From contig CABSAH010000001.1 in the NCBI GenBank assembly GCA_902475645.1, positions 1 through 37,825 on the forward strand: a stretch of DNA of 37,825 nt. Reading direction: 5' to 3'. The notes under the pieces were generated by a model. It was not told the origin of the DNA and ran no database searches. It was given only the letters and a program-made list of their open reading frames with translations. The position numbers and the translations under genes are program-made. This DNA comes from an uncultured Christensenellaceae bacterium. Its GTDB lineage: Bacteria; Bacillota; Clostridia; Christensenellales; CAG-138. Positions 5,378-37,644 of the stretch are shown piece after piece. The number at the start of each line of letters is the position of its first letter. Position 1 is the first letter of the stretch.

Positions 5378-5617
5378 ATGCGAAAAGAATTTGAGGTCAA
5401 CATGAGCCGAGATATAGGGATTATATCCTCCGCCAACGGATATACGCTTGAGCTTAACCACTGCGGCTTTAACGGATATCCGCCAAAGTGGGATTTAAGG
5501 CGCTGGGACAGGCAGAACAACAGACCATTAAAAGGGGTTGCAATGACGGACGATGAAATCAAGGTGCTGTATACGCTTCTCACAGATGAGGTAATGCCCT
5601 ATATAAGCGATTGCTGA
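5378..5617 (+). CDS. YdbC/PC4-like putative ssDNA-binding protein
   Basis: FNGYPPKWDLRRWDRQNNRPLKGVAMTDDEIKVL resembles the W-N-G-x-P-P-K-x-D-I-R-x-W ... GKGITLT motif I recall for the YdbC (PC4-like) family. Strong RBS AAGGAGG. Confidence 0.55.
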   Translation: MRKEFEVNMSRDIGIISSANGYTLELNHCGFNGYPPKWDLRRWDRQNNRPLKGVAMTDDEIKVLYTLLTDEVMPYISDC

Positions 5618-5628
5618 AAGGAGCGACC

Positions 5629-6417
5629 ATGCCGAATAGAATCATAAAGGAGAGCATAACTACAAGCGAAAAGTTAGCGTCCCTTTCGGATTTTGAGTTT
5701 CGGCTTTGGATAGGATTGATTACTCAGGCTGACGATGCAGGGCGCGGAGATGCCCGCCCTGCCGTGATTAAAGGCCGCGTTTTCCCGTTTCGGGAAAGGT
5801 TAACCGTTAAGGACGTTGGTAGTTCCCTCCGTGCGTTGGCGGATAAAGGCTGCGTCACCCTCTACGAGATAGGCGGGAGGCCCTACTTTTATTTCCCAAA
5901 TTGGAGCAAGCACCAGCGCGTCCGCGACTGCAAACCAAAGTATCCCGGACCCACGGATGACAGCTTGCGGCAAGTTGCGGCAGATTGCGGCGAAGCGCGG
6001 CAGAGTGCGGCTATAATCCAATCCAATCCAATCCAATCCGAATACAATATACCCCCCCTATCCCCTAACGGGGATATCGCCCCCCCTGAGGGGGCACACC
6101 CCCACGAGCGCAAGTATGGCGAGTTTGACAATGTGGTTTTGACGGCGGAAGAGGTAGACAAGCTGAAAGCCCGCTTTGCGGACTGGGAAGAGCGTATAGA
6201 GCGACTGTCGCAGTACCTCAAGGCTAATCCCCGTAAGCGCTATGGCAGCCACTATGCCACTTTGCTCATGTGGGCGGACGGGGACGGGAAAAAGGCAGCG
6301 GTTCGCAAGCCGCTTACTTCCCCGCGCCCGAACCGGCAGCGGGATTTAGTGAGCAGCCGCGCATACAGCGGGGCAGAGCTTGACGGGGTGGGGCATGACC
6401 TTTTGGGAGGTGATTAG
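5629..6417 (+). CDS. Phage replisome organizer / DnaD-like replication initiation protein
   Basis: The N-terminus NRIIKESITTSEKLASLSDFEFRLWIGLITQADDAGRGDARPAVIKGRVFPF matches the phage replisome-organizer N-terminal domain. RBS GAAAGGAG precedes the ATG at 5629. Contains internal DNA repeats. Confidence 0.65.
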   Translation: MPNRIIKESITTSEKLASLSDFEFRLWIGLITQADDAGRGDARPAVIKGRVFPFRERLTVKDVGSSLRALADKGCVTLYEIGGRPYFYFPNWSKHQRVRDCKPKYPGPTDDSLRQVAADCGEARQSAAIIQSNPIQSEYNIPPLSPNGDIAPPEGAHPHERKYGEFDNVVLTAEEVDKLKARFADWEERIERLSQYLKANPRKRYGSHYATLLMWADGDGKKAAVRKPLTSPRPNRQRDLVSSRAYSGAELDGVGHDLLGGD

Positions 6418-10060: not shown

Positions 10061-10875
10061 ATGGACAGCTTCAAGGAGAAAATGGCGCTTGGCGACCAGA
10101 TGGAAATGACGGGCGAATATGGCGCATTTGTTGAAAAATTCAAGCCGAAGAAAACAACGGATGATTGCTACACGCCCGATAATGTATATGCCGCCGTCCT
10201 TGATTGGGCAGTTAAAGAATACGGCTTGGAGGGAGCGCAGATAATACGCCCGTTTTACCCCGGCGGGGATTACACAAAAGAGGATTACAGCGGGAATTGT
10301 GCGGTGATAGACAACCCGCCCTTTTCAATTTTGGCCGAGATTTGCCGCTGGTATAATCAGCGCGGCATACGCTTTTTCCTTTTCGGACCGGGACAAACGC
10401 TTTTTTCAGGCAGCGGTATGGACGGTATAAATTATGTCATATGCGATGGCAGTATCACATATGCAAACGGCGCGACTATAAAAACGGGCTTTGTAACAAA
10501 TTTGGGACAGTATAAAATCATTGTTGCGCCTGACCTTATAAAGCAATTAAAGCGGTCAATTATGAAAATCACAAGGCGGCTACAAAGTCAGTGCCTAAAT
10601 ACGATTACCCCGACCATGTTCTGACGGCGGCAAGGATACAGCGCATTGCGAAATATGGGCAGTCATTAAGGATACGCGCCGAAGATTGCGCGTTTATCCG
10701 CGCGTTGGACAGCCAAAGAGGCACAGGAAAGGCGGTTTTCGGCGGTGGTTTTCTTTTGTCGGAGAAAGCGGCGGCAGAGAAAGCAGCGGCAGAGAAAGCG
10801 GCGGCAGAGAAAGCGAAGGCAAAAATATGGGAGCTATCGGAGAGGGAGAAGGAAATAATAAGGCGGCTTGGGTGA
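10061..10875 (+). pseudogene. Putative DNA (adenine) methyltransferase-like gene split by a -1 frameshift near 10540-10555
   Basis: ORF 10061-10624 carries TTDDCYTP and a DNPPF (motif IV-like) sequence. Its last ~25 aa look like junk. The -1 frame is open from 10534 and reads ...KAVNYENHKAATKSVPKYDYPDHVLTAARIQRIAKYG... through ORF 10591-10875. The two ORFs therefore look like one gene. Confidence 0.55.
10762..10821 (+). repeat. 15-bp tandem repeat GAGAAAGCGGCGGCA x4 (last copy diverged), encoding (EKAAA)3-EKAKA
   Basis: Read directly from the sequence, inside the C-terminal part of the split methyltransferase-like gene. Confidence 0.9.
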
Positions 10876-21382: not shown

Positions 21383-21811
21383 ATGGCAACACTATCTTTT
21401 GAAACTGGCATAAAAACATTTGACATAAACGGCGACCCGAACAGGGTCGTTTCTTTTAACCCTTCTGACTTGAACTTCATACACAGGCTGTATGATGGCT
21501 ACTTAAAGCTTGACGCTTTGCAGCGCAAGTATAGCCTGCAAGCCGATAAAGCACCGGAAGCAACAAAAATGATGGCCATAGCACATGAGGCAGACCTTGA
21601 AATACGCAAGATTATAGACGGCATTTTTGCCGCGCCCGTGTCTGAAATAGTCTTTGAAGGGCAAGCCACAAACGCTATCACGGGCGACGGATGCCCGCTA
21701 TGGCTCGGGTTCTTGGTTGCAATAATGGCAAATTGCGACGAAACCGTAACAGAGCGCGAGAACGCGAAAAACCCCAAACTGGAAGCCCTCATTGCCAAAT
21801 ACAATAAATGA
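21383..21811 (+). CDS. Tail assembly chaperone
   Basis: 142 aa and acidic. It is the first of the two genes preceding the tape measure. Confidence 0.6.
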   Translation: MATLSFETGIKTFDINGDPNRVVSFNPSDLNFIHRLYDGYLKLDALQRKYSLQADKAPEATKMMAIAHEADLEIRKIIDGIFAAPVSEIVFEGQATNAITGDGCPLWLGFLVAIMANCDETVTERENAKNPKLEALIAKYNK

Positions 21812-22371
21812 ACTATACACTCCCAACGAGCGTAAATATTGACGGGGTTGAACACCCTATACGTTCAGATTATCGCGTTATATTGGACATTATATCAGCC
21901 TTGAACGACGATGATTTTACCGAAAGAGAAAAAGCCGTAGCTATGATGCGGCTTTTTTTCGTTGATGCTTACGCGGTAACGGATTGGGCGAAAGGACTTG
22001 AAGCGGCTGCAAAATTTATAGCGTGCGGGAGGGATGAGGGCAGCACAAAGCGCCCGCGTGTTATAGATTGGGACAAGGACTTCCCCTATATGGTATCGGC
22101 TATAAACAAGGTTGCGGGGCGGGAAATACGCGCCGACGAATATTGCCATTGGTGGACGTTTATAGGGTACTTTGACGCGATAGACGGGGAAAGCACGTTT
22201 GCAAATATTGTCAACATACGCCATAAAAAGGCTAAAGGGAAAAAACTTGAAAAATGGGAGCAGGAATTTTACAACGCGAACCGCGACTTGTGCGACATAA
22301 AGAACAAGCAACACGGGACGAGCAAGGAGAGCCTTGCGGCGTTGTGTGAATCATTGGCGGCAGAGGAGTAA
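21808..22371 (+). CDS. Phage Gp15-family protein (second tail chaperone position)
   Basis: ATGA overlap with the upstream gene. LPTSVNIDGVEHPIRSDYRVILDIISAL resembles the Gp15 family N-terminus as I recall it. Confidence 0.6.
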   Translation: MNYTLPTSVNIDGVEHPIRSDYRVILDIISALNDDDFTEREKAVAMMRLFFVDAYAVTDWAKGLEAAAKFIACGRDEGSTKRPRVIDWDKDFPYMVSAINKVAGREIRADEYCHWWTFIGYFDAIDGESTFANIVNIRHKKAKGKKLEKWEQEFYNANRDLCDIKNKQHGTSKESLAALCESLAAEE

Positions 22372-22378
22372 ATAAAAA

Positions 22379-24625
22379 ATGGTAGATGGCAGCATTATTT
22401 TTGATACCGCGTTGGATACAGGCGGCTTTGAAAAAGGGGTGCAGCAACTTGGGAAAACAAACAAAGCCGCCGCAAATAGCGTGAATGAAACATCACGAGC
22501 TATAGAGGCACAAGTAAAAAAGGTCGAGCGGCTTCGGCAGAAGCTGCTGCTTGCGCAAGATGTTTATAAAGAGGCGGAATATAGAGGATTTAACACCGAG
22601 AATGCCGCCATTGGCGTATATAACGCAAAACGCGAGGTAGCAAGCGCAACGGCTGAACTAAGAGCAATGCAAAAGGCGGCAGACGGCGCGGCAAGCGCAA
22701 CTGGCGCTATTGCTCCGAACGCGGAGGAGGCCGCAAAATCAACCAAAAAGATAGGGAAAGCAGCAAAGGAGTCCCAAAAGCATGTTGGCGGGCTTGAACG
22801 GAGGATTGTCGGCCTTGCCCGTCGCGTTTTGGTTTTTAGCGTTATTACACGGGCGCTGCGTTCGTTCCGTGAATACTTGGGGAAAGCCCTGAAAACGTCA
22901 AAAGAGTTTACGGCGGCATGGAACAGTCTACGCGGAGCACTGCTCACGGCATTTCAACCGATATGGGAAACCATATTGCCGTGGTTGACCAAATTTATAA
23001 ATGTTCTTGCCAAGGTTATAACGTGGGTTGCAGCGTTTTTTTCGTGGCTCACGGGCAAAAGCCTTGCTGCAAGCTCAAAAAACGCAAAAAGCCTATATAA
23101 AGAGGCTAACGCGATTGAGGCCGTAGGCAAAGCGGCTGACAAGTCGAAATTGTCCCTTGCGGCGTTTGACGAGATAAATAACCTATCATCCAACAAGGAT
23201 ACTGGCAGCGGGGGCGGGAGCAGCGGTGTTACAACGCCCACGTTCGAGGTTGATACAAGCTATCTCGAAAAAGTTGAGGGCATAATGAAGAAAATCGGCG
23301 GATGGGTGCTTGCCATAGCCGCAGGGCTTGGTGCGTGGAAGATAGCAAGCGCATTTGGCGCTGACCTAAAGAAGTGCATAGGATGGTTTATGACAATATC
23401 CGGCCTTGTGCTTGGCATTACCGGCTTTTTAGACGCATGGAATGAAGGACTTAATTGGGATAATTTAATCCAGATACTCACGGGGGCGGCCTTGTTTGCT
23501 GGCGGCCTTGCTGTGCTGTTTGGCAAGGTTGGCGGTGCTATCGGGCTTATAATTGACGGCATTGCACTTATTGTAATAGGCATTAAGGAATGGGTTGAAC
23601 AGGGCGAGCTAACAGACCAAGCATTTGTAGCAATAGAGGCGGGAATAATCGCAATAGGCGCGGCACTTGCATTGCTGATTAGCCCGTGGGCGTTGGTTGT
23701 CGCTGCGATCGCCGGTGTTGCGCTTGCCGTATACAAATACTGGGACGAAATATCCGCATTTTTCCAGGGCGTTTGGGAGAAAATAAGCGCCTTTTTTGTC
23801 GGCATATGGGAGAAAGTCAAAGAGATTTTTGCGCCCGTGGTGCAATGGTTTGACGATAATATAATAACTCCCCTTGTCGAATTTTTCAGAGGTTGGGCAG
23901 AGAGGACGGCAGCGGTATTTGAAGGCTGCTGGATTATTATTCAAGCCGTCTGGAAAATCGTTTCGGAGTGGTTTGACCAAAACGTTATCCAGCCCGTTGT
24001 GGCTTTTTTCAAGAAGCTTGGTGAGGACATTTCCCGCATATTCAAGGAGGCGTGGGAGGTAATAAAGCCGATATGGAACGCCGTGGCGGGGTGGTTTAAC
24101 CAGCACGTTATCCAGCCCATAGTTAAGTTTTTTACCGCCGCATGGGACAAAATCAAAAATGCGTTTGTTACTGCTTTTGAAGCTATTTCGGCATTTGCAA
24201 AGAGCATTTTTAATGGCGTTATATCCATGGTGGAGGGTATTGTGAACCGCGTTATTAAAGCTATAAACGGCATAATTGGCGGGTTTAATAAGGTCGTAAC
24301 GTGGGCGGCCGGGGTTATTGGTAAGGATTGGGGCGGAGTTGCTCTCCTGCCGGAAGTGCATCTGCCGAGACTGGCGGAAGGCACGGTTGTACCCGCGAAC
24401 CGCGAGTTTTTAGCCATGCTGGGCGATAACAAACGCGAAACTGAAATTGTATCGCCGTTATCGACCATGAAGCAAGCGCTGAAAGAGGCATTGAAGGAAA
24501 GCGGCATGGGCGGCAACATGAACGTTCAAGTTTTCCTTGACGGTCAAAAAGTATATGACAGCGTGGTTGACTACTCAAAGCGCGACATACGCCGCACGGG
24601 GCGATATCCGATTTTAGGAGAGTGA
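22379..24625 (+). CDS. Tail tape measure protein
   Basis: 748 aa. Coiled-coil N-terminus, Gly/Ala-rich TM-like centre, and repeated W-x-x-I motifs (FFQGVWEKISAFFVGIWEKVKEIF...). Canonical position. Confidence 0.9.
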   Translation: MVDGSIIFDTALDTGGFEKGVQQLGKTNKAAANSVNETSRAIEAQVKKVERLRQKLLLAQDVYKEAEYRGFNTENAAIGVYNAKREVASATAELRAMQKAADGAASATGAIAPNAEEAAKSTKKIGKAAKESQKHVGGLERRIVGLARRVLVFSVITRALRSFREYLGKALKTSKEFTAAWNSLRGALLTAFQPIWETILPWLTKFINVLAKVITWVAAFFSWLTGKSLAASSKNAKSLYKEANAIEAVGKAADKSKLSLAAFDEINNLSSNKDTGSGGGSSGVTTPTFEVDTSYLEKVEGIMKKIGGWVLAIAAGLGAWKIASAFGADLKKCIGWFMTISGLVLGITGFLDAWNEGLNWDNLIQILTGAALFAGGLAVLFGKVGGAIGLIIDGIALIVIGIKEWVEQGELTDQAFVAIEAGIIAIGAALALLISPWALVVAAIAGVALAVYKYWDEISAFFQGVWEKISAFFVGIWEKVKEIFAPVVQWFDDNIITPLVEFFRGWAERTAAVFEGCWIIIQAVWKIVSEWFDQNVIQPVVAFFKKLGEDISRIFKEAWEVIKPIWNAVAGWFNQHVIQPIVKFFTAAWDKIKNAFVTAFEAISAFAKSIFNGVISMVEGIVNRVIKAINGIIGGFNKVVTWAAGVIGKDWGGVALLPEVHLPRLAEGTVVPANREFLAMLGDNKRETEIVSPLSTMKQALKEALKESGMGGNMNVQVFLDGQKVYDSVVDYSKRDIRRTGRYPILGE

Positions 24626-25046: not shown

Positions 25047-27503
25047 ATGAAAAGCTGGACGGATGAACAAAAAGCGAAATGGTGGAACAGCGACTCACGC
25101 CAAATTAAGGTAGAAATTGAACTTGGGCATTATACATGGGTGCCGCCCCCACCCGAACCTGACGAACCGGACGTAGACGAACCCGAACCGGGGGAAGTTA
25201 AAATAGCTTACAAAATAGAGCCTGGCGAGATTGTAGGGAACTCCACCAAGATAGACGAGGCCATATCCGATGCGGAAACCATCAAATATGGCACGGTACA
25301 GCCCGCAGCACTTGAAATACAGATTGTCGAAGATAGTAAAGAAGTAAGTCGGGTAGAGCAGTATAGCCAGCATCTGGACGGATACGTTAAAGGGCGCATC
25401 TGGGATTATGCGATAGGCCACAAGATAACGGTACATCTATGGGATACAAGTAATGTGTTTGTAGAGAACTCGATTTATGTCGCTGAATTTTACATTGCCG
25501 GGGTCAAGGGCGAGGGCACGACAAAATTTAAGACTATTACGGCATATGACGCGCTGAGCCTTTTTGACAAAGACGTTTCCGACTGGTACAACAGCCTTGA
25601 CTTCAACGGGCTTACCCTTAAAGTGTTCCGCGAGAGCCTATGTACATATTGCGGCGTGGAATTTGAGAGCGTAACGCTGCCCAATGACAGCATGACCATA
25701 AGCCGTACAATGTCCGCAACGTCCATATCGGGGCGCGATATCCTTTCCGCGTGCTGCGAGCTCAACGGCTGCTGGCCTAAGATGGAGCTATGGGCAGACG
25801 TACCGCCGGATTGGGATATCTCATTCATGGGAACAATAAGCAAGCTCCGCTGGGTGACGCTTGGCAGCACCTCATGCGAAACGTTTGATTACAGCCAATA
25901 CGATTACACCTTCCGTCCCGAAAGCACCCGCGAGGAATACGACTGCAAGGGCATTAACGCCGTTATCATACGGGCAACCGATGATGATGTAGGAGGGCAC
26001 TACCCCGCAACCGTGCAGGATAACCCGTATATCATACAGGGCAATTTCCTATGCTTTGGCAAGACCACTGCGGAGCTTACCACCATAGCGCAAAACATAT
26101 ATAACCAAATAGCGAATAAGCCGTACAGGCCGCACAAAACGGTTATAACGGGGCGGCCATACCTTGAACCGGGCGACAAGGTAACGGTGAAATTCGCCGA
26201 GGGCAACGGCGGCACTTTCGACACCTATATACTCAAGCGCACAATGACGGGCGAAGCCGCCCTGCTGGATACCTATGAAGCCAAGGGGCAAAAGGAGCAT
26301 AGGGAGCAGTACGGCATATCCCAACAGATACAGCAGATACAGGGCAGGACAAACGAGCTTACCCGAACGGTGGACGAAACCGTAAACACCATTACGCGCA
26401 TCGAGTACCTTACCCCCGTTTTGTCGAAAACCGACCCGTCAACGGACTGGACGGACGATGAAAAGGCGGCAAAGGCGGGCTATCAATGGTTTGACGGTAC
26501 GGACTTGCGCATATGGGACGGCGCTTCATGGAAGCTTACCATATACCCCGACTATAACCAAAGCACACAGCCCACAAACGCCAAGGAGGGGGAATACTGG
26601 TATAATCCCACAACGGGCGAGATAAAGAAGCTTGTCGGGGATACTTGGACGGCTGATAGCACGGTATGTATACCCACAACGTGGACGCAGACCATGCAGA
26701 CACAGCTTAAAATCACCGCCGAGGGCGTACAAAGCACCGTCACAAAGGACAACATTATATCCACCATCAATCAGAGCGCGGAGAGCGTGAGCATAAACGC
26801 AAGCAAGATTGATTTGACGGGCTATGTCACCATAAACTCCCTGAAAGCTGGGGGCACAACGCAGATTGACGGCGGGCGCATAACCACGGGAACGGTAGCG
26901 GCGGCGCGGATTGACGTTGATAATCTCTATGTTAAGCACCTGAGCGCGGCAGATGGGACGTTTACCGGAAAGCTGCAAGCCGCAAGCGGCACTTTTGATA
27001 CGCTTGACGCGGTAGGCGGCTATGTTCACTTCGGCTATAACTTTTTGCGCATAAACGGCGTTGAGATAGGCTATTATCCCGGGTATTCCCAAGTGTGTGT
27101 TGTCCCGCCATATCATGAAGTGGGGAACCTTGGCGCGGGAACGCTTGCATGGAATCAATGCGTTGCGACACTTTTGTACAGTAAAAGCGGCGGCGTGAAG
27201 GCCTATTCAATGCGTAAGCTGAAAAAGGATATAGAGGACTACCCATACGACCCAACGCTTGTAGACAGGCTGCAACCCGTAACTTTCAGAATGAAAGACG
27301 ATGCGGACAATATAAAACACGTCGGCCTAATCGCCGATGATGTGCAGGAGGTTGAACCGCTTATCGTCTCTCCATTTCAGGACGAGGGTATGCCCGAAGC
27401 AATATTAACGATAGAATACGACAAGGTCGGCGTGCTTTTAATCAATGAAATAAAAGCGCTGCGACAGCGCGTGAAAAAACTTGAAGAAAGGAGACTTATA
27501 TGA
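25047..27503 (+). CDS. Tail tip / fibre protein with a C-terminal intramolecular-chaperone (peptidase S74-like) domain
   Basis: 818 aa. The C-terminus KKDIEDYPYDPTLVDRLQPVTFRMKDDADNIKHVGLIADDVQEVEPLIV...TIEYDKVGVLLINEIKALRQRVKKLEE matches the auto-cleaving chaperone domain of tail spikes and fibres. Confidence 0.8.
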   Translation: MKSWTDEQKAKWWNSDSRQIKVEIELGHYTWVPPPPEPDEPDVDEPEPGEVKIAYKIEPGEIVGNSTKIDEAISDAETIKYGTVQPAALEIQIVEDSKEVSRVEQYSQHLDGYVKGRIWDYAIGHKITVHLWDTSNVFVENSIYVAEFYIAGVKGEGTTKFKTITAYDALSLFDKDVSDWYNSLDFNGLTLKVFRESLCTYCGVEFESVTLPNDSMTISRTMSATSISGRDILSACCELNGCWPKMELWADVPPDWDISFMGTISKLRWVTLGSTSCETFDYSQYDYTFRPESTREEYDCKGINAVIIRATDDDVGGHYPATVQDNPYIIQGNFLCFGKTTAELTTIAQNIYNQIANKPYRPHKTVITGRPYLEPGDKVTVKFAEGNGGTFDTYILKRTMTGEAALLDTYEAKGQKEHREQYGISQQIQQIQGRTNELTRTVDETVNTITRIEYLTPVLSKTDPSTDWTDDEKAAKAGYQWFDGTDLRIWDGASWKLTIYPDYNQSTQPTNAKEGEYWYNPTTGEIKKLVGDTWTADSTVCIPTTWTQTMQTQLKITAEGVQSTVTKDNIISTINQSAESVSINASKIDLTGYVTINSLKAGGTTQIDGGRITTGTVAAARIDVDNLYVKHLSAADGTFTGKLQAASGTFDTLDAVGGYVHFGYNFLRINGVEIGYYPGYSQVCVVPPYHEVGNLGAGTLAWNQCVATLLYSKSGGVKAYSMRKLKKDIEDYPYDPTLVDRLQPVTFRMKDDADNIKHVGLIADDVQEVEPLIVSPFQDEGMPEAILTIEYDKVGVLLINEIKALRQRVKKLEERRLI

Positions 27504-27670
27504 ACAAGGCTGAAAAACAGGTCATAGAGAGCATATACGCCACTTTGGAGCAGACCATGCCCGTAACGGCATATCGGGACGTTGAAGCCAAATGCGGCGT
27601 GTTGCAATCGCTCAAACGGCTATATAACGGCGAGTTTGAGGACAAAGCGGAAAAGGAGAACGAAGCATGA
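27500..27670 (+). CDS. Small hypothetical protein (56 aa)
   Basis: ATGA overlaps at both ends. Hand translation MNKAEKQVIESIYATLEQTMPVTAYRDVEAKCGVLQSLKRLYNGEFEDKAEKENEA. Confidence 0.4.
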   Translation: MNKAEKQVIESIYATLEQTMPVTAYRDVEAKCGVLQSLKRLYNGEFEDKAEKENEA

Positions 27671-28599
27671 CCTACAACATCACCTTGACCGCCAACCACC
27701 AGACCCTGACCGCCGAGTATATCCCCCTTGCGGCGAATTCGGTGCAGTACCTTACCGTGAAGGTGGTATGCGAAACCGAGGACTGGACGGGGCTTGCCGT
27801 CAATGCCATTTTCACACAGGGCTGCATAAGGCGCGGCTTTGCGGTGGTGAATGGCGAGATAACGGCAAAACAGCAGCTTAACCTTTCTGCGGGCGACTGG
27901 TGCGTATCTTTGGCGGGATACGGAGAGCGGGACGGCGCTATAATCCCGCTCATTACCACCAACACCGCGCACATAAGCGTAATGCCGACGAATGACACGG
28001 AGGGCTTCCCCATGATACCGCCCACAGCCGAGGAAGAACTCCGCGCGGAAATAGGCAACCTCGCTGACCTCTCCACAGAGGACAAAAGCAATCTTGTGGC
28101 GGCGGTAAACGAGCTGGAGCGGACACGGGCTAAGGAGAACGAGGTTGTCAAGCACACTCCCCAAGCCCTTACGGAAGCACAGCAGGAACAAGCGCGAACA
28201 AACATCAGCGCCGAAAAGGCGGGGACAGGCTACACAAAAGAAGCCGTAGACGCGGCTATTAAAGATGTGACCGATGCCCAGACCGAGGGCTTTACAATAG
28301 TAGGGCAAGAGCTGAGCAACGTTAAAAGCGATATCCAAAAGAAATACACCAAGCCCGCATCCGGCATACCCAAGGCCGACCTTGCGGTAGATGTGCAAGA
28401 AAGCCTTTCCCGCGCGGACAAAGCCTTGCAGAGCGTCCCCGACACATACCGCACGGCGGCGGAGCAGGACAAGCTGGACGAGAAAAAGCAGCCCAAAGCC
28501 ATTGCGGACGCGGGCGGGCATTTTGGCGCGAACCCCACCGTGGAAAGCGCCTTACAGCAGCTGGGCGGGGCAATCGTTTTGCGCACATGGACTAAGTAA
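27667..28599 (+). CDS. Tail-fibre-module structural protein (310 aa)
   Basis: Lies between the tail tip protein and the receptor-binding fibre. Has a helical, coiled-coil-like C-terminal half. Confidence 0.6.
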   Translation: MTYNITLTANHQTLTAEYIPLAANSVQYLTVKVVCETEDWTGLAVNAIFTQGCIRRGFAVVNGEITAKQQLNLSAGDWCVSLAGYGERDGAIIPLITTNTAHISVMPTNDTEGFPMIPPTAEEELRAEIGNLADLSTEDKSNLVAAVNELERTRAKENEVVKHTPQALTEAQQEQARTNISAEKAGTGYTKEAVDAAIKDVTDAQTEGFTIVGQELSNVKSDIQKKYTKPASGIPKADLAVDVQESLSRADKALQSVPDTYRTAAEQDKLDEKKQPKAIADAGGHFGANPTVESALQQLGGAIVLRTWTK

Positions 28600-28609
28600 G
28601 AGGTGAAAA

Positions 28610-30175
28610 ATGGCTCAATCAACAGATAAAACATTAAAACAGCTTATAATCAACAAAATGCCGCGAAGCGTGTACAAAGCGAAGGACGCGGCCGGGGAGC
28701 TTGACCCCGAACAGGTGTATCTCCCCGATTCGGCATACGATGACAGCCTCGGCATAACCTCCGCTACCCCCGGTCAAATCGTAAAGGTCAAGACCGTGCA
28801 GGACGGCAAGCCGACCGAGTGGGAAGCGGTGAACGATTACCCCGCAGTGCAAACCCGCTATGGGGTGCGCTTTACCGGAAGCCCCCCGGAGGGGGAGCGC
28901 CTGTATGGTGCCGTGGGGCTAAAGGCAAACGTGGGCGTGGGCGCAGAGCTTGTCGAGAATGATTTTGACTACATCATGCCGTGGGCGGGTATGAAACGCT
29001 GTAATACAAAGCTTGTTAACGGGGAGCGCGTGCCGACATTTTACGAGGGTGAACCGGGCTTTTCAAACACGGCGGCAGACGTTTTTGTGCAAGTGCCACG
29101 CTTTTATTATTTTAGGAGCGATGATGATGCGGAGCATGTCGTTTCGATGTACCCCCTTGCGGGATACCGCCCTCCCGAAAAATTTCGCCGTGCCGATGGG
29201 ACGCTGCGAGACTATGTTTTCCTCCCCGCGTATACGTCAGCGCTGGTGGACGGCGTTCCGGTGAGCCGTAGCGGGCTTTATGCGTATATGGCGTCTTTGA
29301 ATGGCTGGATGAAGCTGCTCTCCGATATGCACGCCGCCGGAAAGCTTGATTCGGATATATGGATTGAAGGCACAAAGGACGAGGACATCGTGCGCATTTT
29401 GTGCGACATCGAATTTGCGACGCGCGACCACCAGACCAAAATGATGGGCGCTTGCCTAATGAGATATGCCGACGACACTGTAGTAGAGGGAGGTGTAAAT
29501 CAATTTACCTTATCGCCGGAAATAGCTGCAAAATATGTCATAGGTCAGGCGATTGCCATTGGCACGGCTGATAAAGGTCAGCAGATTGCAATGAACGCCA
29601 CAATTACGAGCATAGACGCCGGCGTCATTACTTTCGAGCCTTCGGACGCTGATGTGACGGTAGAAGCGGGGCATTTCGTTTCTTCAATGCCGTGGAAATC
29701 AGGAGCTTGCGACGGTGTTAAGGCTTCGTCCGGCTCACCCATTTCAAATTCAAACGGCATATATCCGTGTAAATACAGGGGCATTGAAAACCCGTGGGGC
29801 AACCAATTCCGTTGGCGCTGGGACGTTCTTGTGAATGACTATGTGCCTTCGGTCTTACTCGACCCCACGAAATATGCGGATGGTAGGCTGACAGAGGACT
29901 ATCACGCGCTTGCTTACACTATACCCACAACGGCCGGTTATGCAAAAGAAATGGGCTATGACCCAGAATTTCCGTTTGTCCGCATAACAAAAGAGCTGGG
30001 TGGCACATGGAACTCGTTTTTCGCGGATTATAATTGGGTCAACGCTGGCTTGCGGGCGCTTCTTGTCGGGGGTGGCGTGAACGGCGGTCGTGGCGCTGGG
30101 TTGCGGTACTGCAGCGTGGCTGGCGCGCCGTCTAGCGCGAACTGGAGCATCGGCGCGGCTCTTTCTCCCGCGTAA
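28610..30175 (+). CDS. Tail fibre / receptor-binding protein, the DGR target protein with a C-terminal variable region
   Basis: 521 aa. The N-terminus KQLIINKMPRSVYKAKDAAGELDPEQVYLPDS is typical of fibre anchors. The last ~40 codons are the VR copy of a VR/TR pair, with a lectin-like ...GGGVNGGRGAGLRYCSVAGAPSSANWSIGAALS end. Confidence 0.85.
   Translation: MAQSTDKTLKQLIINKMPRSVYKAKDAAGELDPEQVYLPDSAYDDSLGITSATPGQIVKVKTVQDGKPTEWEAVNDYPAVQTRYGVRFTGSPPEGERLYGAVGLKANVGVGAELVENDFDYIMPWAGMKRCNTKLVNGERVPTFYEGEPGFSNTAADVFVQVPRFYYFRSDDDAEHVVSMYPLAGYRPPEKFRRADGTLRDYVFLPAYTSALVDGVPVSRSGLYAYMASLNGWMKLLSDMHAAGKLDSDIWIEGTKDEDIVRILCDIEFATRDHQTKMMGACLMRYADDTVVEGGVNQFTLSPEIAAKYVIGQAIAIGTADKGQQIAMNATITSIDAGVITFEPSDADVTVEAGHFVSSMPWKSGACDGVKASSGSPISNSNGIYPCKYRGIENPWGNQFRWRWDVLVNDYVPSVLLDPTKYADGRLTEDYHALAYTIPTTAGYAKEMGYDPEFPFVRITKELGGTWNSFFADYNWVNAGLRALLVGGGVNGGRGAGLRYCSVAGAPSSANWSIGAALSPA
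30048..30166 (+). repeat. DGR variable repeat (VR)
   Basis: Gap-free 119-nt alignment to 30255-30373 at an offset of 207 nt. There are 16 mismatches, all opposite adenines in the other copy. Confidence 0.9.
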
Positions 30176-30214
30176 GCGGGAACTGGTAAGGGGGTACGGG
30201 GGCGAAAGCCCCCG
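30167..30214 (+). promoter_or_regulatory. Two GNRA-loop hairpins directly 3' of VR (candidate DGR target-recognition element)
   Basis: CCCGC-GTAA-GCGGG at 30167-30180, where the loop contains the target stop codon. CGGGGGC-GAAA-GCCCCCG at 30197-30214. Confidence 0.55.
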
Positions 30215-30254
30215 ATTCTTATAGATTCGGATTGGACGCGGGGCGTCGGTGGGT

Positions 30255-30373
30255 GCTTGCGGGCGCTTCATGTCGGAGGTAACGTGAACAACGGTCGTAA
30301 CGCTGGGTTGCGGTACTGCAACGTGAATAACGCGCCGTCTAACGCGAACTGGAACATCGGCGCGGCACTTTCT
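30255..30373 (+). repeat. DGR template repeat (TR), non-coding template RNA
   Basis: Rich in AAC/AAT codons. 16 of its 25 adenines differ in VR, and no other base differs. Lies between the target gene and the RT. Confidence 0.9.
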
Positions 30374-30514
30374 TGGTTTTGTTGGATTTCGCGTCCTCTC
30401 CCGTGCCACAGCGCCCGTAGGGGCGGCGGGCAAAAGCCCGTGCAGAAATAGACCGTTCCAGACGGGGTTAGTAACGCAAGTGAAACCCCTGTAGGTCAAA
30501 AGAAAGATGATTGG

Positions 30515-31612
30515 ATGAAACGTTATAAGGGTAAAGACATGACCGACCGTGACTTGATTCGGTTGGCTATAATGAACGCCGCAAAGCGAAAGAAAAACCG
30601 CGCCGAAGTGAAGCGGGTGCTTGCGGATATCGAAAGCCACATTACCATAATTCAACATATAATCGTTGAAGAAACGTATAAGCCCGCACCATACAGAGTT
30701 TTTGAAGTAGTTGACGGCGTAAGCGGGAAACGCCGCACCGTGAGCTGTTCGAGATTCTTTCCAGACCAAGTGCTTCATTGGCTGGTGATTCTGTCCGCGC
30801 AAGACATTTTTATGCACGGGATGTACGAATTTGTGTGTGGGAGCGTCCCGAATCGCGGCATTCATTACGGACGAAAGTATGTCAAGAAATGGATAGAAAC
30901 AGACCGGAAAAATATAAAATACTGTGCAAAGCTGGATATAACCAAATTTTACCCATCGATAAGCCATGATGCTTTGAAAGCATCCTTACAGCGAAAAATC
31001 AAAGACCGCAAATTGCTGTGGCTGTTTGACGTGATTATTGACAGCACGGAAAGCGGGTTGCCGATTGGGAATTATACATCACAGTGGCTTGCAAATTTCC
31101 TTCTCCAAGATTTAGACCATAGAATCAAAGAAGAAATGCATATCGCGCATTATATGAGGTACATGGATGATATGGTTTTGCTTGGTGCTAACAAGAAAAG
31201 GTTGCACGCGGCAATAAACGAAATTGCGGCGGCACTTGCACCTTTGGGCTTGACGCTGAACAAAAATTGGCAAGTTTTTCGCGTTGATTATATTGACAGA
31301 AACGGCAAGCGCCGTGGGCGTGATATTGATTTTATGGGATTCCGATTTTTCCGCAATAAAATCATAATGCGAAAAAGGATATCGCTTCGGGCACGGCGGC
31401 TGGCGGCGCGTATATCAAAGTCAGAATGTGTCACCTTTAAGCAAGCTGCGGCTATACTTTCGTATATGGGATGGCTTAAGTATTCTGATTCTTTTGGATT
31501 TTATGAAAAGCACATAAAACCAAAAATCAATATATCAAAGTTAAAGGAGGTAGTAAGGAGTGAAAACAGAAAGCGCAAGCAGGCAACCGAAGTATATACT
31601 CGAACCGCTTGA
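30515..31612 (+). CDS. DGR reverse transcriptase
   Basis: RT motifs AKLDITKFYPSI, LPIGNYTSQWLANFLL (the [LIV]GxxxSQ DGR signature), YMRYMDDMVLLG (YxDD) and DFMGFRF. 365 aa. Visibly more AT-rich than its neighbours. Confidence 0.9.
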   Translation: MKRYKGKDMTDRDLIRLAIMNAAKRKKNRAEVKRVLADIESHITIIQHIIVEETYKPAPYRVFEVVDGVSGKRRTVSCSRFFPDQVLHWLVILSAQDIFMHGMYEFVCGSVPNRGIHYGRKYVKKWIETDRKNIKYCAKLDITKFYPSISHDALKASLQRKIKDRKLLWLFDVIIDSTESGLPIGNYTSQWLANFLLQDLDHRIKEEMHIAHYMRYMDDMVLLGANKKRLHAAINEIAAALAPLGLTLNKNWQVFRVDYIDRNGKRRGRDIDFMGFRFFRNKIIMRKRISLRARRLAARISKSECVTFKQAAAILSYMGWLKYSDSFGFYEKHIKPKINISKLKEVVRSENRKRKQATEVYTRTA

Positions 31613-32051
31613 TTTTGGGCGGGTTCGCGTGACACTTTTTGCCAACGAAAAAACGATTGAGCAGGAAGACGGCACACATTACCTGTATGACGTCTACTCG
31701 ACAGTAACGCTGAATCGCCCGTCACTGGGGCAGTACATCTCAGGGAATCTTGATGAGTGGATAGCGGCCTATGAGGAAGCAGAGATAGAGGAAGTAGCCG
31801 CTGCCGCCCGCCGTGCCCGTGACCGTTTGCTTGCTGAATCGGATAAGACGATGGTGCTTGACAGGATGGGGCTTAACATCCCCGAAAACATAACCGCTAC
31901 AACGCTGCTCCCTGCCGCTCAGGGGCTTTTCCGTGCGCTGCGTGCAGCTTGCAGCGGCGAGTGGGCTGCGTATAGACAGGCTTTAAGGGATATCCCAGAG
32001 CAAGCGGGTTTCCCGTATGAGATTGATTGGCCTAAAAAGCCGGAAATATAA
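31560..32051 (+). CDS. Tail fibre assembly chaperone-like protein
   Basis: GTG start 9 nt after AAAGGAGG. ARDRLLAESDKTMVLDR...WAAYRQALRDIPEQAGFPYEIDWPKKP matches the phage tail assembly chaperone C-terminal pattern. Overlaps the RT 3' end by 53 nt. Confidence 0.6.
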   Translation: MKTESASRQPKYILEPLDFGRVRVTLFANEKTIEQEDGTHYLYDVYSTVTLNRPSLGQYISGNLDEWIAAYEEAEIEEVAAAARRARDRLLAESDKTMVLDRMGLNIPENITATTLLPAAQGLFRALRAACSGEWAAYRQALRDIPEQAGFPYEIDWPKKPEI

Positions 32052-34463: not shown

Positions 34464-35033
34464 TTATGCCTCGTCAATTCTGCGCGCCGCCTCAGCTCCA
34501 AGGCGGTCTTTATAGTCCTCATAGCCCCAGTATACTTCATATGGGAATTCACTCCGCTCAAATATAACAGCTTCAGGATGCCTTTCCCGATATCTCGATG
34601 TAGGGCTGGTATTGCTGGGGAATATCCAACCTGGGTTACAGTACCATTCCTCAACCGCCGCATAATAATGGAACCGGAAGTCGGGTTCTACCACATCATC
34701 CTCCTCTCGCTCTAAGACATAATATGTTTTACAAAAAACAGCATGGCACGCGATTAACTCATTGCACTCCATTATTTCTTCAAAGCAGCGTGCATTGGCA
34801 TCTTTACGAAAAGCCACACGAGAGTCAAACTTTATTTTATCGCAATGAGTATGTAGCCCGCAAGCACCTATGTAGTCAGCAGTGCATGTGCGTGGATATA
34901 ACCGCTCAAATTCCGGCAATACATCAATTGGTTTCCACCCTGCCGGAATCTGTTTAACGTCGGTTATAAAGGGTACGTCAGTAGGGCATTCTTCAACTGT
35001 GAGATACACACCAAGGTCATAATATCGTTCCAT
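34464..35033 (-). CDS. Hypothetical Cys/His-rich acidic protein (189 aa), cargo gene 1
   Basis: RBS AAGGAG 7 nt upstream. Driven by consensus promoter copy A. I recognise no family. Confidence 0.65.
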   Translation of the reverse strand: MERYYDLGVYLTVEECPTDVPFITDVKQIPAGWKPIDVLPEFERLYPRTCTADYIGACGLHTHCDKIKFDSRVAFRKDANARCFEEIMECNELIACHAVFCKTYYVLEREEDDVVEPDFRFHYYAAVEEWYCNPGWIFPSNTSPTSRYRERHPEAVIFERSEFPYEVYWGYEDYKDRLGAEAARRIDEA

Positions 35034-35079
35034 TTTCTAACTCCTTTCGGGGTTTTACCCCTTGCTTTATCATGGCTCT

Positions 35080-35108
35080 ATTATATACTATTCCGGAATA
35101 GATGTCAA
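35080..35108 (-). promoter_or_regulatory. Consensus promoter copy A: TTGACA-N17-TATAAT with the palindrome CTATTCCGGAATAG in the spacer
   Basis: On the minus strand, -35 is at 35108-35103 and -10 at 35085-35080. The operator-like palindrome is at 35088-35101. An AT-rich 10-bp-stem palindrome lies at 35112-35135 just upstream. Confidence 0.7.
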
Positions 35109-35136
35109 TAGTTTTTCTAAACTTTTTTAGAAAAAA

Positions 35137-35328
35137 TTATTCCCCGCGCTGCATGGCATTGTCGATGATGCGGTTTATAAACTCGGTCATGCTCTCCCCC
35201 TTTTTTGCCGCATATTCTTTTATGAGCTGTTTTTTGCCCTGCGGCACAAATACATCGATTCTATCCATAGATGCGCGGTAAGCATCATAATATTTTTTGT
35301 TGCTTTTGTACTTGGCGTTTTTCTCCAT
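35137..35328 (-). CDS. Ribbon-helix-helix (Arc/CopG-like) DNA-binding protein
   Basis: RIDVFVPQGKKQLIKEYAAKKGESMTEFINRIIDNAM fits a beta-strand, helix, helix RHH layout. 63 aa. Confidence 0.7.
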   Translation of the reverse strand: MEKNAKYKSNKKYYDAYRASMDRIDVFVPQGKKQLIKEYAAKKGESMTEFINRIIDNAMQRGE

Positions 35329-35530: not shown

Positions 35531-36331
35531 TTAGTCCTGGTCGAACCGGAATTTCAGCCATCCCTCGGGGATGCCGTTCTCGCTTGCTTGGCTCAGTATC
35601 TCGGCCTTTAGTTCGTCGTAAGCTTCACGGCTTTCGGGAGCCTTCTTTTTGCTCTTGACCTCGGCGTATAGCTCGATGTCGTTTATCTCGACCATCATCC
35701 AGTCTACACCGTGCGTCCCGTATCGGCTTTCGCCGGATTGATATTCCACCTCATACGGCTCACAAAAATTACACACGCAGTTGCCTTCCTTGTCGTCCCA
35801 CATTTCTCGGTAGAGGTAAAAATATTTCCCACAAACAGCACATTTGCAGTAGCATGCTGCTCGGGCGTGGTCAGCATTGAAAAATATCTTGCCGTCCGCT
35901 GCCGTAATCATTCCATCTTCTTCCCCTGCGTGAATCTCTACGCCCCAAGTTTCCGCTTTCTTTATGGTTTCTTCATCGAAGCAGATAGGGTCGAATCTGG
36001 CTTTTTTCTTGAGAAATTCCGCTAATGCTACATAAAAGCAGGTGCCGAGGTCGCCGTATTCGCCGCAATAATCGCCACAATTTAACCCTAACTCTTCGCA
36101 CAAATCTTCGTACATATCATCGTCCCCGCCTTCATCGTAATTAACGATTGCGTCAAGCAGCTCTTCGGCTTCGGGATATTTTATACGTACAAAATCGTCC
36201 GCAGAAGCCTCCTCGTCGCCATACCATTCAGCTTCCAGTAGCTTATCGAGTATGTAATGCGGAATCAAACCTGCGCCGTACTTTTCGCGCGCCTTCGTGC
36301 CTTCGATTGCCCTGTAATAATAGTTCATCAT
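35531..36331 (-). CDS. Hypothetical highly acidic protein with a C-terminal Cys cluster (266 aa), cargo gene 2
   Basis: RBS AAAGGAG. D/E-rich N-terminal half (DEGGDDDMYEDLCEELG). CYCKCAVCGKYF...CVCNFCEPYE zinc-ribbon-like cluster. Driven by promoter copy B. Confidence 0.7.
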   Translation of the reverse strand: MMNYYYRAIEGTKAREKYGAGLIPHYILDKLLEAEWYGDEEASADDFVRIKYPEAEELLDAIVNYDEGGDDDMYEDLCEELGLNCGDYCGEYGDLGTCFYVALAEFLKKKARFDPICFDEETIKKAETWGVEIHAGEEDGMITAADGKIFFNADHARAACYCKCAVCGKYFYLYREMWDDKEGNCVCNFCEPYEVEYQSGESRYGTHGVDWMMVEINDIELYAEVKSKKKAPESREAYDELKAEILSQASENGIPEGWLKFRFDQD

Positions 36332-36376
36332 TTCTAACTCCTTTCGGGCTTTGCCCTTGCTTTACTTGATGGTCTT

Positions 36377-36405
36377 ATTATATACTATTCCGGAATAGTT
36401 GTCAA
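36377..36405 (-). promoter_or_regulatory. Consensus promoter copy B: TTGACA-N17-TATAAT with the palindrome CTATTCCGGAATAG in the spacer
   Basis: On the minus strand, -35 is at 36405-36400 and -10 at 36382-36377. The palindrome is at 36385-36398 and the AT-rich palindrome at 36409-36432. It is part of a ~108-bp direct repeat with 35031-35139. Confidence 0.7.
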
Positions 36406-36448
36406 GGGTTTTTCTAAACTTTTTTAGAAAAAATTTATGCCCGTAAAT

Positions 36449-37000: not shown

Positions 37001-37339
37001 ATGATAAGCGTACAGCAAGCCGAAAAAGGGCTAATGCGCTACATAGATAGCGAGATAATGCCTAAGCTTACGGGCTGGCGCAAAGTGGGCATGGGGGCGT
37101 ATATCGCCCTCATAGCCCGCAATGGGCGAAGCCTGATAGCAAAGTACAAAGACCACCCCGCCGTTACCGTGCTGAATGTCACGGACGGCGAAAGCATGGA
37201 TATAGACGCGGTATATAATGCCGTCCTGCCATACGCGGACGAGGCAATCAAAATCGACATTCCCGCCATCGGGGAAATATCGTTTAATCGCGACGATATA
37301 GACAAGATGTACCGCTACATGAAAGGAGAAAGCGAATGA
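37001..37339 (+). CDS. Hypothetical protein (112 aa)
   Basis: From the ORF track. Closely follows the previous gene and has an ATGA overlap with the next. Confidence 0.55.
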   Translation: MISVQQAEKGLMRYIDSEIMPKLTGWRKVGMGAYIALIARNGRSLIAKYKDHPAVTVLNVTDGESMDIDAVYNAVLPYADEAIKIDIPAIGEISFNRDDIDKMYRYMKGESE

Positions 37340-37644
37340 CTTTTATAAAAGACCTGTCGGAGCGCATATCCGAGGAGATAGCCGATGCCGAGTACTACGC
37401 CAAGCACGCCCTGAGCGCGAAAGACGAGTACCCCACGGCGGCACAGACTTTTTACACAATCGCGGGGCAGGAGCTAAACCACGCCTCCATGCTACACGAC
37501 CTTGCCACCCGCGCCATTGCGGACTACCGCGCAAAGCACGGCGAACCGCCCGCGGCCATGGAGGCCGTCTACAAATATTTGCACGAGCAGCAGATTGAGC
37601 ATACCGAAGCGGTAAAAAGGTATCTGGATATGTATAAGGCGTAA
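37336..37644 (+). CDS. Small all-helical hypothetical protein (102 aa)
   Basis: RBS AAAGGAGA. Predicted helical bundle with an ExxH-like motif (QELNHA). Family not recognised. Confidence 0.6.
   Translation: MTFIKDLSERISEEIADAEYYAKHALSAKDEYPTAAQTFYTIAGQELNHASMLHDLATRAIADYRAKHGEPPAAMEAVYKYLHEQQIEHTEAVKRYLDMYKA

Follow-up and report, generated by a model that had tools for sequence, protein, structure and literature searches.

We analyzed a 37,825-nt stretch of contig CABSAH010000001.1 (assembly GCA_902475645.1) from an uncultured Christensenellaceae bacterium. This whole stretch is referred to below as the window, and coordinates are counted from its first letter. Genes for a terminase, an SPP1-type portal, a capsid protein, a tape measure, RecT/YqaJ, SSB, and an NlpC/P60 endolysin identify the window as phage DNA. 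After the tape measure, its tail module encodes a DUF6711 protein, an 818-aa fibre-like protein, a 310-aa open reading frame (ORF), and the 521-aa tail fibre that is the focus of this study. The fibre gene ends in one copy of a repeat – the variable repeat (VR) – and is followed by a second, intergenic copy – the template repeat (TR) – and by genes for a reverse transcriptase (RT) and for a protein resembling tail-fibre assembly chaperones (Table 1). A sequence-only reading had interpreted this arrangement as a diversity-generating retroelement (DGR) that diversifies the C-terminus of the tail fibre. That claim is supported by the adenine-only mismatches between the repeats, the affiliation of the RT, the repeat pairs found beside its relatives, and the predicted fold of the fibre. 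Judged from these lines of evidence, the cassette is a genuine DGR able to rewrite 13 codons at the tail-fibre tip, and it belongs to a described class that lacks the accessory protein Avd rather than to a new kind of system.

Table 1. Features of the DGR locus and its surroundings, with the repeats of the closest relative.
Feature	Position	Strand	Description
Fibre-shaft-like ORF upstream of target	27667..28599	+	310 aa; homologue in sibling phage MT835524 (L001) is fused via the connector to a different, non-DGR head
DGR target gene	28610..30175	+	521-aa tail-fibre / receptor-binding protein; phrog_5302 'tail protein', E=1e-42
Connector	28745..28834	+	target residues 46-75, LGITSATPGQIVKVKTVQDGKPTEWEAV; tblastn 83% identity to L001 21724-21813
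Variable repeat (VR)	30048..30166	+	target codons ~480-519, at the 3′ end of ORF 28610-30175
Hairpin 1	30166..30181	+	at VR end; 6-bp stem, GTAA loop with target stop codon (TAA 30173-30175)
Hairpin 2	30197..30214	+	CGGGGGC-GAAA-GCCCCCG, 7-bp all-GC stem, GAAA loop; 30 nt past VR end, then ATTCTTAT
Template repeat (TR)	30255..30373	+	intergenic; 25 adenines, 23 in codon positions 1-2; 10 AAY codons
RT-18-like structured spacer RNA	30394..30512	+	RF03021 37.6 bits; lineage covariance model 29.5 bits, E=1.4e-5
DGR reverse transcriptase (RT)	30515..31612	+	365 aa, pI 10.1; RVT_1 E=4e-15; phrog_1423 E=2e-100; best PDB match 8ub7_A
Tail-fibre assembly-chaperone-like gene	31560..32051	+	163 aa, pI 4.85; Pfam Phage_tail_APC E=8e-18; PHROG tail-fibre assembly families
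Repeats of IMGVR_UViG_3300011008_000191	L004 5205-5323 / 5438-5556; L005 4947-5065

A repeat search recovered VR and TR as a 119-nt direct repeat with a spacing of 207 nt and 87% identity, leaving a gap of 88 nt between the copies. Their likeness ends sharply beyond both borders. Aligned without gaps, the copies differ at 16 positions, every one of which is an adenine in TR (16 of its 25), and none of the 94 non-adenine positions differs. If 16 mismatches fell at random, the probability that all would hit an adenine is 7.6e-14 (hypergeometric). The substitutions comprise 13 A>G, 2 A>T, and 1 A>C. Two of the 16 are synonymous changes at third codon positions (GGA>GGG and GCA>GCT), which indicates that the differences track the base in the template and do not result from selection on the protein. 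The sequence-only reading had counted these differences by hand, and the computed alignment reproduced its description throughout: two gapless copies at an offset of 207 nt, 16 mismatches confined to TR adenines, a VR that closes the 521-aa ORF, and an intergenic TR rich in AAC and AAT codons.

The composition of TR is suited to protein diversification. Its only overlapping ORF is a spurious one of 64 aa that represents TR read in frame. Thirteen TR codons – the 10 AAY codons (Y, C or T) plus CAT, TAC, and ATC – are able to change their amino acid, and together they could template up to 3.7e13 protein variants. Since the TR adenines are concentrated in codon positions 1 and 2, no stop codon can arise. 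Searching the window with a TR in which every adenine was replaced by N identified no second VR.

The prevalence of A>G changes in VR (13 of 16) converts AAC mostly into GGC or AGC, which encode glycine and serine. We considered this excess as a possible sign of a different mutational process. Across the family, adenines are changed to G in 47%, T in 31%, and C in 22% of cases, and the skew in the window has a nominal P of 0.005. Because the family baseline is already 47% A>G and ~62 distinct loci were compared, the skew is unremarkable and we rejected this idea.

A more conventional account of the repeat is that it was left behind by recombination or duplication at the fibre 3′ end and has since diverged by normal mutation and selection, and that the RT is an unrelated neighbour of the group II intron, retron, or defence type. 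The confinement of all 16 differences to one template base, with two synonymous sites among them, is difficult to reconcile with ordinary divergence. The second half of this account concerns the identity of the RT. As expected of any prokaryotic RT, its domain is matched by group II, Drt, and retron models in NCBIfam and PADLOC. The NCBIfam scores, however, fall far below the curated cut-offs (group II 88 bits against 300, Drt3a 77 against 200, retron St85 60 against 235, AbiA 28 against 250), the PADLOC matches are generic, partial, and ≤97 bits, and an Rfam scan of the window found no group II intron or retron RNA. The RT thus tested negative as a group II intron, retron, or defence (Drt, Abi) enzyme.

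Several features place the RT among DGR enzymes instead. The sequence-only reading had noted a 365-aa RT that starts 141 nt past TR and carries KFYPSI, IGNYTSQ, and YMDD motifs; we recovered the same ORF and spacing, with these motifs at residue 144, residues 184-190, and residue 216. DGR RTs share the signature [I/V/L]GxxxSQ, whereas group II intron and retroviral RTs have QGxxxSP (PMC7826257), and the window RT is of the IGxxxSQ type. Its match to phrog_1423 spans the full protein length. The best PDB match is 8ub7_A (E=1.3e-24), followed by a group II intron RT (E=1.7e-13), and we verified that the aligned 8ub7_A chain corresponds exactly to residues 49-313 of Brt, the RT of Bordetella phage BPP-1. 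Two Brt residues, R74 and I181, have been shown to promote mutagenesis at adenines (PMC7826257), and in this alignment the window RT conserves equivalents of both.

Comparison with related loci provided the strongest evidence for a DGR RT. We applied a simple finder of repeats and mismatch bias to a set of RT relatives (80 IMG/VR loci and 37 genome loci). An adenine-biased TR/VR pair was present in 109 of the 124 sequences tested, most of which were loci fetched as RT relatives, and the order was nearly always VR-TR-RT. In these relatives VR usually lies ~200-250 nt before TR, and TR a few hundred nt before the RT. The annotated phage relatives of the RT are known DGR carriers, including Arawn (44% identity), LBR48 (43%), and Faecalibacterium phages (38%), and further relatives occur in DGR-carrying crAss-like phages, Hankyphage-type Bacteroides phages, BPP-1 (32%), and VHML. 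Genomic relatives come mostly from gut and rumen Clostridia-type organisms, and the strong Shine-Dalgarno sites of the window fit this picture. By its best PDB match, motif, family scores, and the TR/VR pairs of its relatives, the RT groups with DGR RTs and not with the group II, retron, or Abi enzymes, in line with the affiliation drawn from its motifs in the sequence-only reading. The adenine-only mismatches, the low family scores, and the recurrence of the RT together with adenine-biased repeats effectively refute the duplication account, to which we assign a negligible probability.

We next considered the target protein. The N-terminal anchor and connector (residues 1-~80) are predicted with low confidence. 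The fold of the head, which spans residues ~83-521 and ends in the ~40 aa encoded by VR, is predicted confidently. An AlphaFold (AF2) model built from a 61-sequence input had a predicted local distance difference test (pLDDT) score of 90.3, and a separate model of residues 200-521 reached 96. Homologues of the target span residues ~83-521 and are at most 69% identical. Many fibre proteins that are otherwise unrelated match only the stretch up to residue ~75 (14-15% of the query), at 75-91% identity.

C-type-lectin-type folds, as in Mtd, TvpA, and TaqVP, are the commonest – though not the universal – scaffold for DGR display. Consistent with such a fold, the sole significant PDB match of the full-length target model was the DGR variable protein TaqVP (5vf4; E=1e-7, probability 1.00, template modelling (TM) score 0.47). 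TaqVP was again the single significant PDB match of the domain model (E=1e-6, probability 1.00), with TM scores of 0.46-0.47 across models. Mtd variants of BPP-1 appeared weakly in the same search. Against BFVD, the target matched gut-phage 'tail collar fiber' proteins (TM up to 0.75), crAss-like tail fibres, and proteins with FGE-like and TvpA-like labels. These models are consistent with the C-type-lectin fold that the sequence-only reading had proposed to look for, and the assignment of the target as a tail fibre also stands. The sequence-only reading was too narrow in speaking of 'the' tail fibre: the window encodes at least two fibre-like proteins, the other being the 818-aa protein (ORF 25047-27503), which has a Peptidase_S74 domain.

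The fibre head contains one further element of interest, a β-barrel of ~100 aa (target residues ~293-360, nt ~29486-29690). In the fold search it weakly resembles the pyruvate kinase B domain (probability ≤0.97, E ~0.02-0.1). In the predicted models the barrel is probably an insertion into the lectin-like fold.

The tentaclins, DGR-targeted receptor-binding proteins of phages, provide another known arrangement, in which VR is part of an N-terminal C-lec domain that precedes Ig-like domains (PMC10743442). We rejected a relationship on grounds of topology – VR lies at the extreme C-terminus of the window target, which has no Ig-domain Pfam match.

If VR is diversified in nature, related fibres should vary at the codons that TR can rewrite. 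Among the target homologues we found three clusters of ≥90% identity in which hypervariable columns occur only at positions matching the TR-adenine codons of the window. These columns contain 6-9 different residues each, are confined to the last ~35 aa, and sit on the VR scaffold AL.VGG.V..GR..GAR.C.V...P....W...AALSPA. These sequence comparisons show hypervariation at the level of the family.

Two hairpins follow VR, and neither has a counterpart after TR. A published consensus for DGR target-recognition hairpins specifies a GC-rich stem of 7-10 bp, a 4-nt GRNA loop, and a position 4-34 bp past VR (Guo et al. 2011, PMC3240598). Hairpin 2 fits this consensus in stem, loop, and position. It was also scored as terminator-like, and we regard it as a candidate DGR target-recognition hairpin or cruciform and/or an intrinsic terminator of the fibre gene. 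In the closest relative that we found (L004, described below), both hairpins occur at equivalent positions with different sequences, and the equivalent of hairpin 2 lies at +35 and has a GCAA loop. In a comparison of 107 loci, the mean folding energy of the first 40 nt past VR is -12.9 kcal/mol, compared to -3.5 kcal/mol past TR. Counting perfect stems of ≥5 bp failed to separate the VR from the TR flanks (53 vs 48 loci) because the TR flank contains stems of the spacer RNA described below; stems of ≥7 bp do separate them.

We identified a structured RNA in the spacer between TR and the RT. The Rfam model RF03021 ('RT-18') matched positions 30434-30505 over its full 84 positions with E=8e-5, though the score of 37.6 bits is below the gathering score of 41.3. 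At the same position, 11 of 15 relatives exceed the RF03021 gathering score and two more come near it. The RNA has an outer ACC/GGU stem (30452-30454 / 30494-30496), an inner GACGGGG/CCCCUGU stem (30461-30467 / 30486-30492), and a conserved UAGUA...GAAA loop, followed by the ribosome-binding region of the RT gene. The match in the TR-RT gap includes the UAGUA and GAAA elements and the nested stems of RF03021 (PMC5737381), but the first stem is replaced by a longer, branched version.

This first stem carries a 35-nt insertion that forms two mini-hairpins, CGCCC-GUAG-GGGCG (30412-30425) and CGGGC-AAAA-GCCCG (30427-30440). In relatives, a simple stem of 5 bp capped by a 4-nt loop takes this place.

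Folding of the whole TR-spacer region gave a z-score of +0.75, which is no more stable than shuffled sequence, so the RNA is visible only through comparative analysis. We built a lineage covariance model (R1) from ten relatives that included neither the window nor its closest relative. The three stems of this model are 96.6% paired, compared to ~41% when the partners are slid. Compensatory changes occur in 11 of the 15 pairs, and none of 500 shuffles reached the observed covariation score. The model gave one match per locus, directly upstream of the RT, in 79 of 80 viral and 25 of 38 genomic RT loci, or ~90% of relatives, and a single match in the window. It had no match in BPP-1 or in the DGR-less sibling phage MT835524. 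The TR-RT slot of BPP-1 is instead occupied by RF03022 ('Phage_DGR', 104.7 bits), for which an Rfam scan found no match in the window or its relatives.

These results suggest that the window spacer RNA is probably a divergent RT-18 member that falls formally under the threshold. When Weinberg et al. 2017 (PMC5737381) defined these motifs, they connected RT-10 alone to a DGR, proposing that this RNA in the TR-RT gap serves as a primer; they left the other RT motifs unassigned but speculated about further links. The orphan motif RT-18 can now be given a context: in a large DGR lineage without Avd it forms the spacer between TR and the RT, where BPP-1 has its DGR RNA.

BPP-1-type DGRs encode Avd – a basic protein of ~128 aa that forms a four-helix bundle – next to TR and the RT. 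We found no such gene at this locus. None of the 87 window ORFs of 85-190 aa gave a significant match to an Avd-family Pfam model, tblastn with BPP-1 Avd found nothing in the window, and none of 62 small ORFs within ±5 kb of eight diverse relatives matched the Avd family. As a positive control, BPP-1 Avd matched PF22296 at 7e-36. HRDC and MutS-like (MSL) families were likewise missing from the Pfam families listed for the small ORFs of the window. Because no Avd was found and the VR-TR gap is 88 nt, we did not file the element as BPP-1-type (avd-TR-RT). Such a state is known: Wu et al. 2018 (PMC5758913) found no accessory gene in 29% (75 of 372) of curated DGRs and described an RT lineage devoid of avd.

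One small ORF was examined as a hidden Avd. ORF 37336-37641 (102 aa) has a sub-threshold match to Rubrerythrin, a ferritin-like four-helix bundle (E=3e-4, 21.5 bits, cut-off 22.8), and was considered because the Rubrerythrin type and Avd are both helical bundles. We rejected this candidate, as its ferritin-like matches are weak, it is acidic (pI 5.4), and it lies 5.7 kb away among early-type genes.

The gene after the RT raised a different possibility. It has a GTG start, an AAGGAGG Shine-Dalgarno sequence, and a 53-nt overlap with the RT 3′ end. An accessory protein described as CH1 has 160-169 aa and a pI of 4.7±0.2, has no identifiable motif, and occurs only in DGRs without avd, HRDC, or MSL genes (PMC5758913). 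Compared with this published description, the chaperone-like ORF of the window fits in size and pI, as does its orthologue in L004 (162 aa, pI 4.80). Orthologues of the gene also overlap the RT end in all six loci with an RT ≥50% identical, which suggests translational coupling. The protein could accordingly be a dedicated DGR accessory factor, a CH1 equivalent acting alongside or instead of fibre chaperoning, so that retrohoming would not be an RT-only process. If so, the element would be Architecture E and not Architecture A, which is a TR-RT core lacking avd, HRDC, MSL, and CH1 genes. The significant Phage_tail_APC and PHROG tail-fibre-assembly matches, however, fit a chaperone, and a chaperone gene directly after a fibre gene is a normal phage arrangement. 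The gene is also not detectable beside more distant RT relatives that still have working-looking DGRs, and CH1 has been reported only from a Bacteroides-type lineage (PMC5758913), whereas the nearest genomic relatives of the window RT are mostly Clostridia-type. We consider an accessory role of this kind distinctly improbable. If the chaperone-like ORF and CH1 do turn out to be homologous, CH1 would simply be a tail-fibre assembly chaperone.

Another hypothesis is that in this large gut-phage lineage the RT-18-type RNA makes Avd-independent retrohoming possible, scaffolding and priming the RT alone and replacing the Avd pentamer of BPP-1, perhaps with participation of the acidic protein as a CH1-like factor. 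We hold this to be rather unlikely. If true, the ~2-kb cassette would be a minimal, protein-poor system for targeted mutagenesis.

The boundaries of the cassette became apparent from a sibling phage recovered from human faeces (MT835524, here L001), which is collinear with the window at 82-91% identity on both sides of the DGR block. Collinearity in blastn stops at 28831 and resumes at 32050, and window positions 28832-32049 are replaced in L001 by 856 nt (21811-22666). The sibling lacks the block that comprises fibre head, TR, RT, and chaperone, and encodes one 417-aa fibre protein composed of a homologue of the ORF upstream of the target, the connector (motif TPGQI.KVKTVQ.GKPTEWEAV), and an unrelated head. 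Since the collinear phage replaces this block, the sequences indicate that fibre head, TR, RT, and chaperone are one exchangeable module, bounded by the connector and the chaperone stop codon.

Taken together, these findings make it very probable that the element is a bona fide, Avd-less DGR of the target-TR-RT type in the tail module of a gut siphovirus-like phage, operating by a mechanism such as the following. TR, the structured spacer, and the RT gene would be co-transcribed, as there is no terminator between TR and the RT and a terminator-like hairpin lies upstream of TR. The RT would bind the spacer RNA and thereby have cDNA synthesis positioned and primed at the TR 3′ end, by analogy with the BPP-1 spacer in the equivalent slot, whose residue A56 primes synthesis. 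The enzyme would copy C, G, and U faithfully and misincorporate opposite A – the outcome of which is seen in the 16 of 16 differences at adenines – with IGxxxSQ and the Brt R74 and I181 equivalents as the likely enzymatic basis. The cDNA would then replace VR, directed by the common GC-rich 3′ end of the repeats (CATCGGCGCGGC.CTTTCT) and one or both of the post-VR hairpins. With hairpins only downstream of VR, transfer would run one way, from TR to VR. The variable codons lie in the last ~40 residues of a predicted fold that resembles DGR variable proteins, and this region may bind the receptor. The downstream chaperone-like protein, judging from its family, would probably assist in folding or assembly of the fibre head. 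All four parts – head, TR, RT, and chaperone – travel jointly as a recombination module joined at the conserved N-terminal connector.

Several points weigh against this interpretation or parts of it. The TM score to TaqVP is just 0.46-0.47, and the C-type-lectin assignment leans on Foldseek probability and not on close superposition. Searching the target by sequence against the PDB found nothing with either the single sequence or the 61-sequence profile, and a match emerged only from the fold comparison. No sigma-70-type promoter was predicted upstream of TR. The spacer RNA scores slightly under its Rfam threshold (37.6 vs 41.3 bits) and has an atypical first stem. The proposed priming role of the spacer and function of the hairpins draw on analogy to BPP-1, an Avd-dependent system. 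With respect to ongoing diversification of the window's own VR, no near-identical copy of the element was found: an exact-protein look-up of the RT returned no record, two exact 40-42-nt flank patterns had no match in IMG/VR, an adenine-masked VR/TR pattern had no match in a metagenome collection, and no target homologue exceeded 69% identity. One past homing event and continuing activity cannot be told apart by comparing a single TR with its VR.

These considerations bring up the possibility of a relic DGR, in which the adenine-specific scar testifies to past activity and retrohoming has ceased, for example through loss of a required host or accessory factor. Such a state would accord with the missing Avd, the sub-threshold spacer RNA with its unusual first stem, and the A>G skew of VR, which departs from the broader family spectrum, as well as with the failure of the searches to find near-identical copies of the element. 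Yet the RT ORF is undisrupted and retains every catalytic and DGR motif, TR still has its 10 AAY codons and an open frame, and the two post-VR hairpins are intact, as are the loop and core stems of the spacer RNA. The whole lineage is Avd-less, yet homologous targets show population hypervariation, and the A>G skew is not exceptional given the number of loci compared. A relic is unlikely in our view, and we infer that this copy of the DGR is currently active.

We then compared the element to characterized and catalogued systems. The sequence-only reading had recognized the signature of the BPP-1 DGR (mtd-avd-TR-brt). This comparison holds for the mutagenic signature, the RT, and the logic of the target: both elements have adenine-specific TR-to-VR differences, a VR at the end of a tail receptor-binding gene, and a TR directly upstream of the RT. 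The RTs are homologous (32% identity, tblastn E=5e-18) and have IGxxxSQ, R74, and the I181 equivalent in common. A structured RNA in the TR-RT gap and a GC-rich hairpin with a 4-nt loop after VR are further similarities. The comparison does not extend to the accessory protein or the spacer RNA family. In BPP-1 avd is essential, whereas none was found in the window, which has an 88-nt VR-TR gap in place of an avd ORF, and the spacer RNA is RF03022 in BPP-1 but RT-18-like in the window. The 521-aa target has a weak fold-search match to Mtd, and a chaperone gene overlaps the RT end.

In its organization the element resembles Architecture A, with target, TR, and RT on one strand and no Avd, HRDC, or MSL gene found (Wu et al. 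2018, PMC5758913). Lineage 3A of that study is described as restricted to Bacteroides and its relatives, whereas the nearest genomic relatives of the window RT are mostly from Clostridia-type organisms. The closest annotated RTs belong to the Firmicutes phages Arawn (Butyrivibrio), LBR48 (Lactobacillus), and FP_Epona and others (Faecalibacterium), at the identities given above. Arawn shares the order target-TR-RT, the lack of avd, and a 111-nt TR/VR pair with nine of nine mismatches at adenines. It differs in that its target is annotated as a 'hypothetical protein' and no chaperone-like gene follows the RT. Its spacer has a weak RT-4-like Rfam match (49 bits, below threshold) and matches R1 at 31 bits. 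The Arawn repeats (L125, MN882550.2; 3468-3578 and 3710-3820) are unannotated and lie upstream of a 'putative reverse transcriptase'.

The closest relative found was IMGVR_UViG_3300011008_000191 (loci L004/L007 and L005). It shares the order target-VR, TR, RT, chaperone, with identities to the window of 71% for the RT, 62% for the target, and 66% for the chaperone, and has a near-threshold RT-18 match. Unlike the window element with its one VR, a single TR in this genome serves two VRs in two fibre-like genes ~20 kb apart. Mismatches fall on adenines at 15 of 17 positions in the adjacent VR and at 19 of 25 in the remote one, with the non-adenine mismatches located at the 5′ boundary. A VR identical to the remote type is also present in L002 and L006, where no RT lies nearby. 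TaqVP, the closest structural match of the target, is a bacterial protein of Thermus aquaticus and not a phage fibre. Its sequence identity to the window target is 9-12%, and the target has extra elements, including the inserted β-barrel.

DGRs on the tail fibres of gut phages are abundant and well described, and Avd-less architectures have already been catalogued. In general terms the locus adds little to this, and its useful by-products may be the context given to RT-18, the compactness of the cassette, and its exchange as a module. Through the proposed process, the receptor-binding tip of one tail fibre could sample up to ~4e13 variants, which could plausibly allow the phage to adapt its host range quickly in the gut. 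The DGR travels with the fibre head and chaperone as a single recombination module. A compact cassette of fibre head, TR, spacer RNA, RT, and chaperone, together with a natural sibling that lacks it, would form a pair for studying Avd-independent retrohoming.

Other repeats in the window are distinct from the DGR. A 105-nt direct repeat without adenine bias occurs at 35034-35138 and 36331-36435 and in L001 at 25345-25439 and 26563-26657. On the minus strand each copy is a regulatory module with a palindrome (TTCTAAAAAAGTTTAGAA), a perfect sigma-70 promoter (TTGACA-17 nt-TATAAT) whose spacer holds a 14-bp palindrome (CTATTCCGGAATAG), a small hairpin, and then a Shine-Dalgarno sequence. Two leftward ORFs without Pfam or PHROG matches (34464-35033 and 35531-36331) each directly follow one copy, and by its sequence the repeat looks like a duplicated operator/promoter. 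Short tandem repeats were also observed at 10762-10815 (15-nt unit, 3.6 copies, 94% identity), 5961-6011 (20-nt unit, 2.5 copies), and 6015-6048 (AATCC, 6.6 copies).

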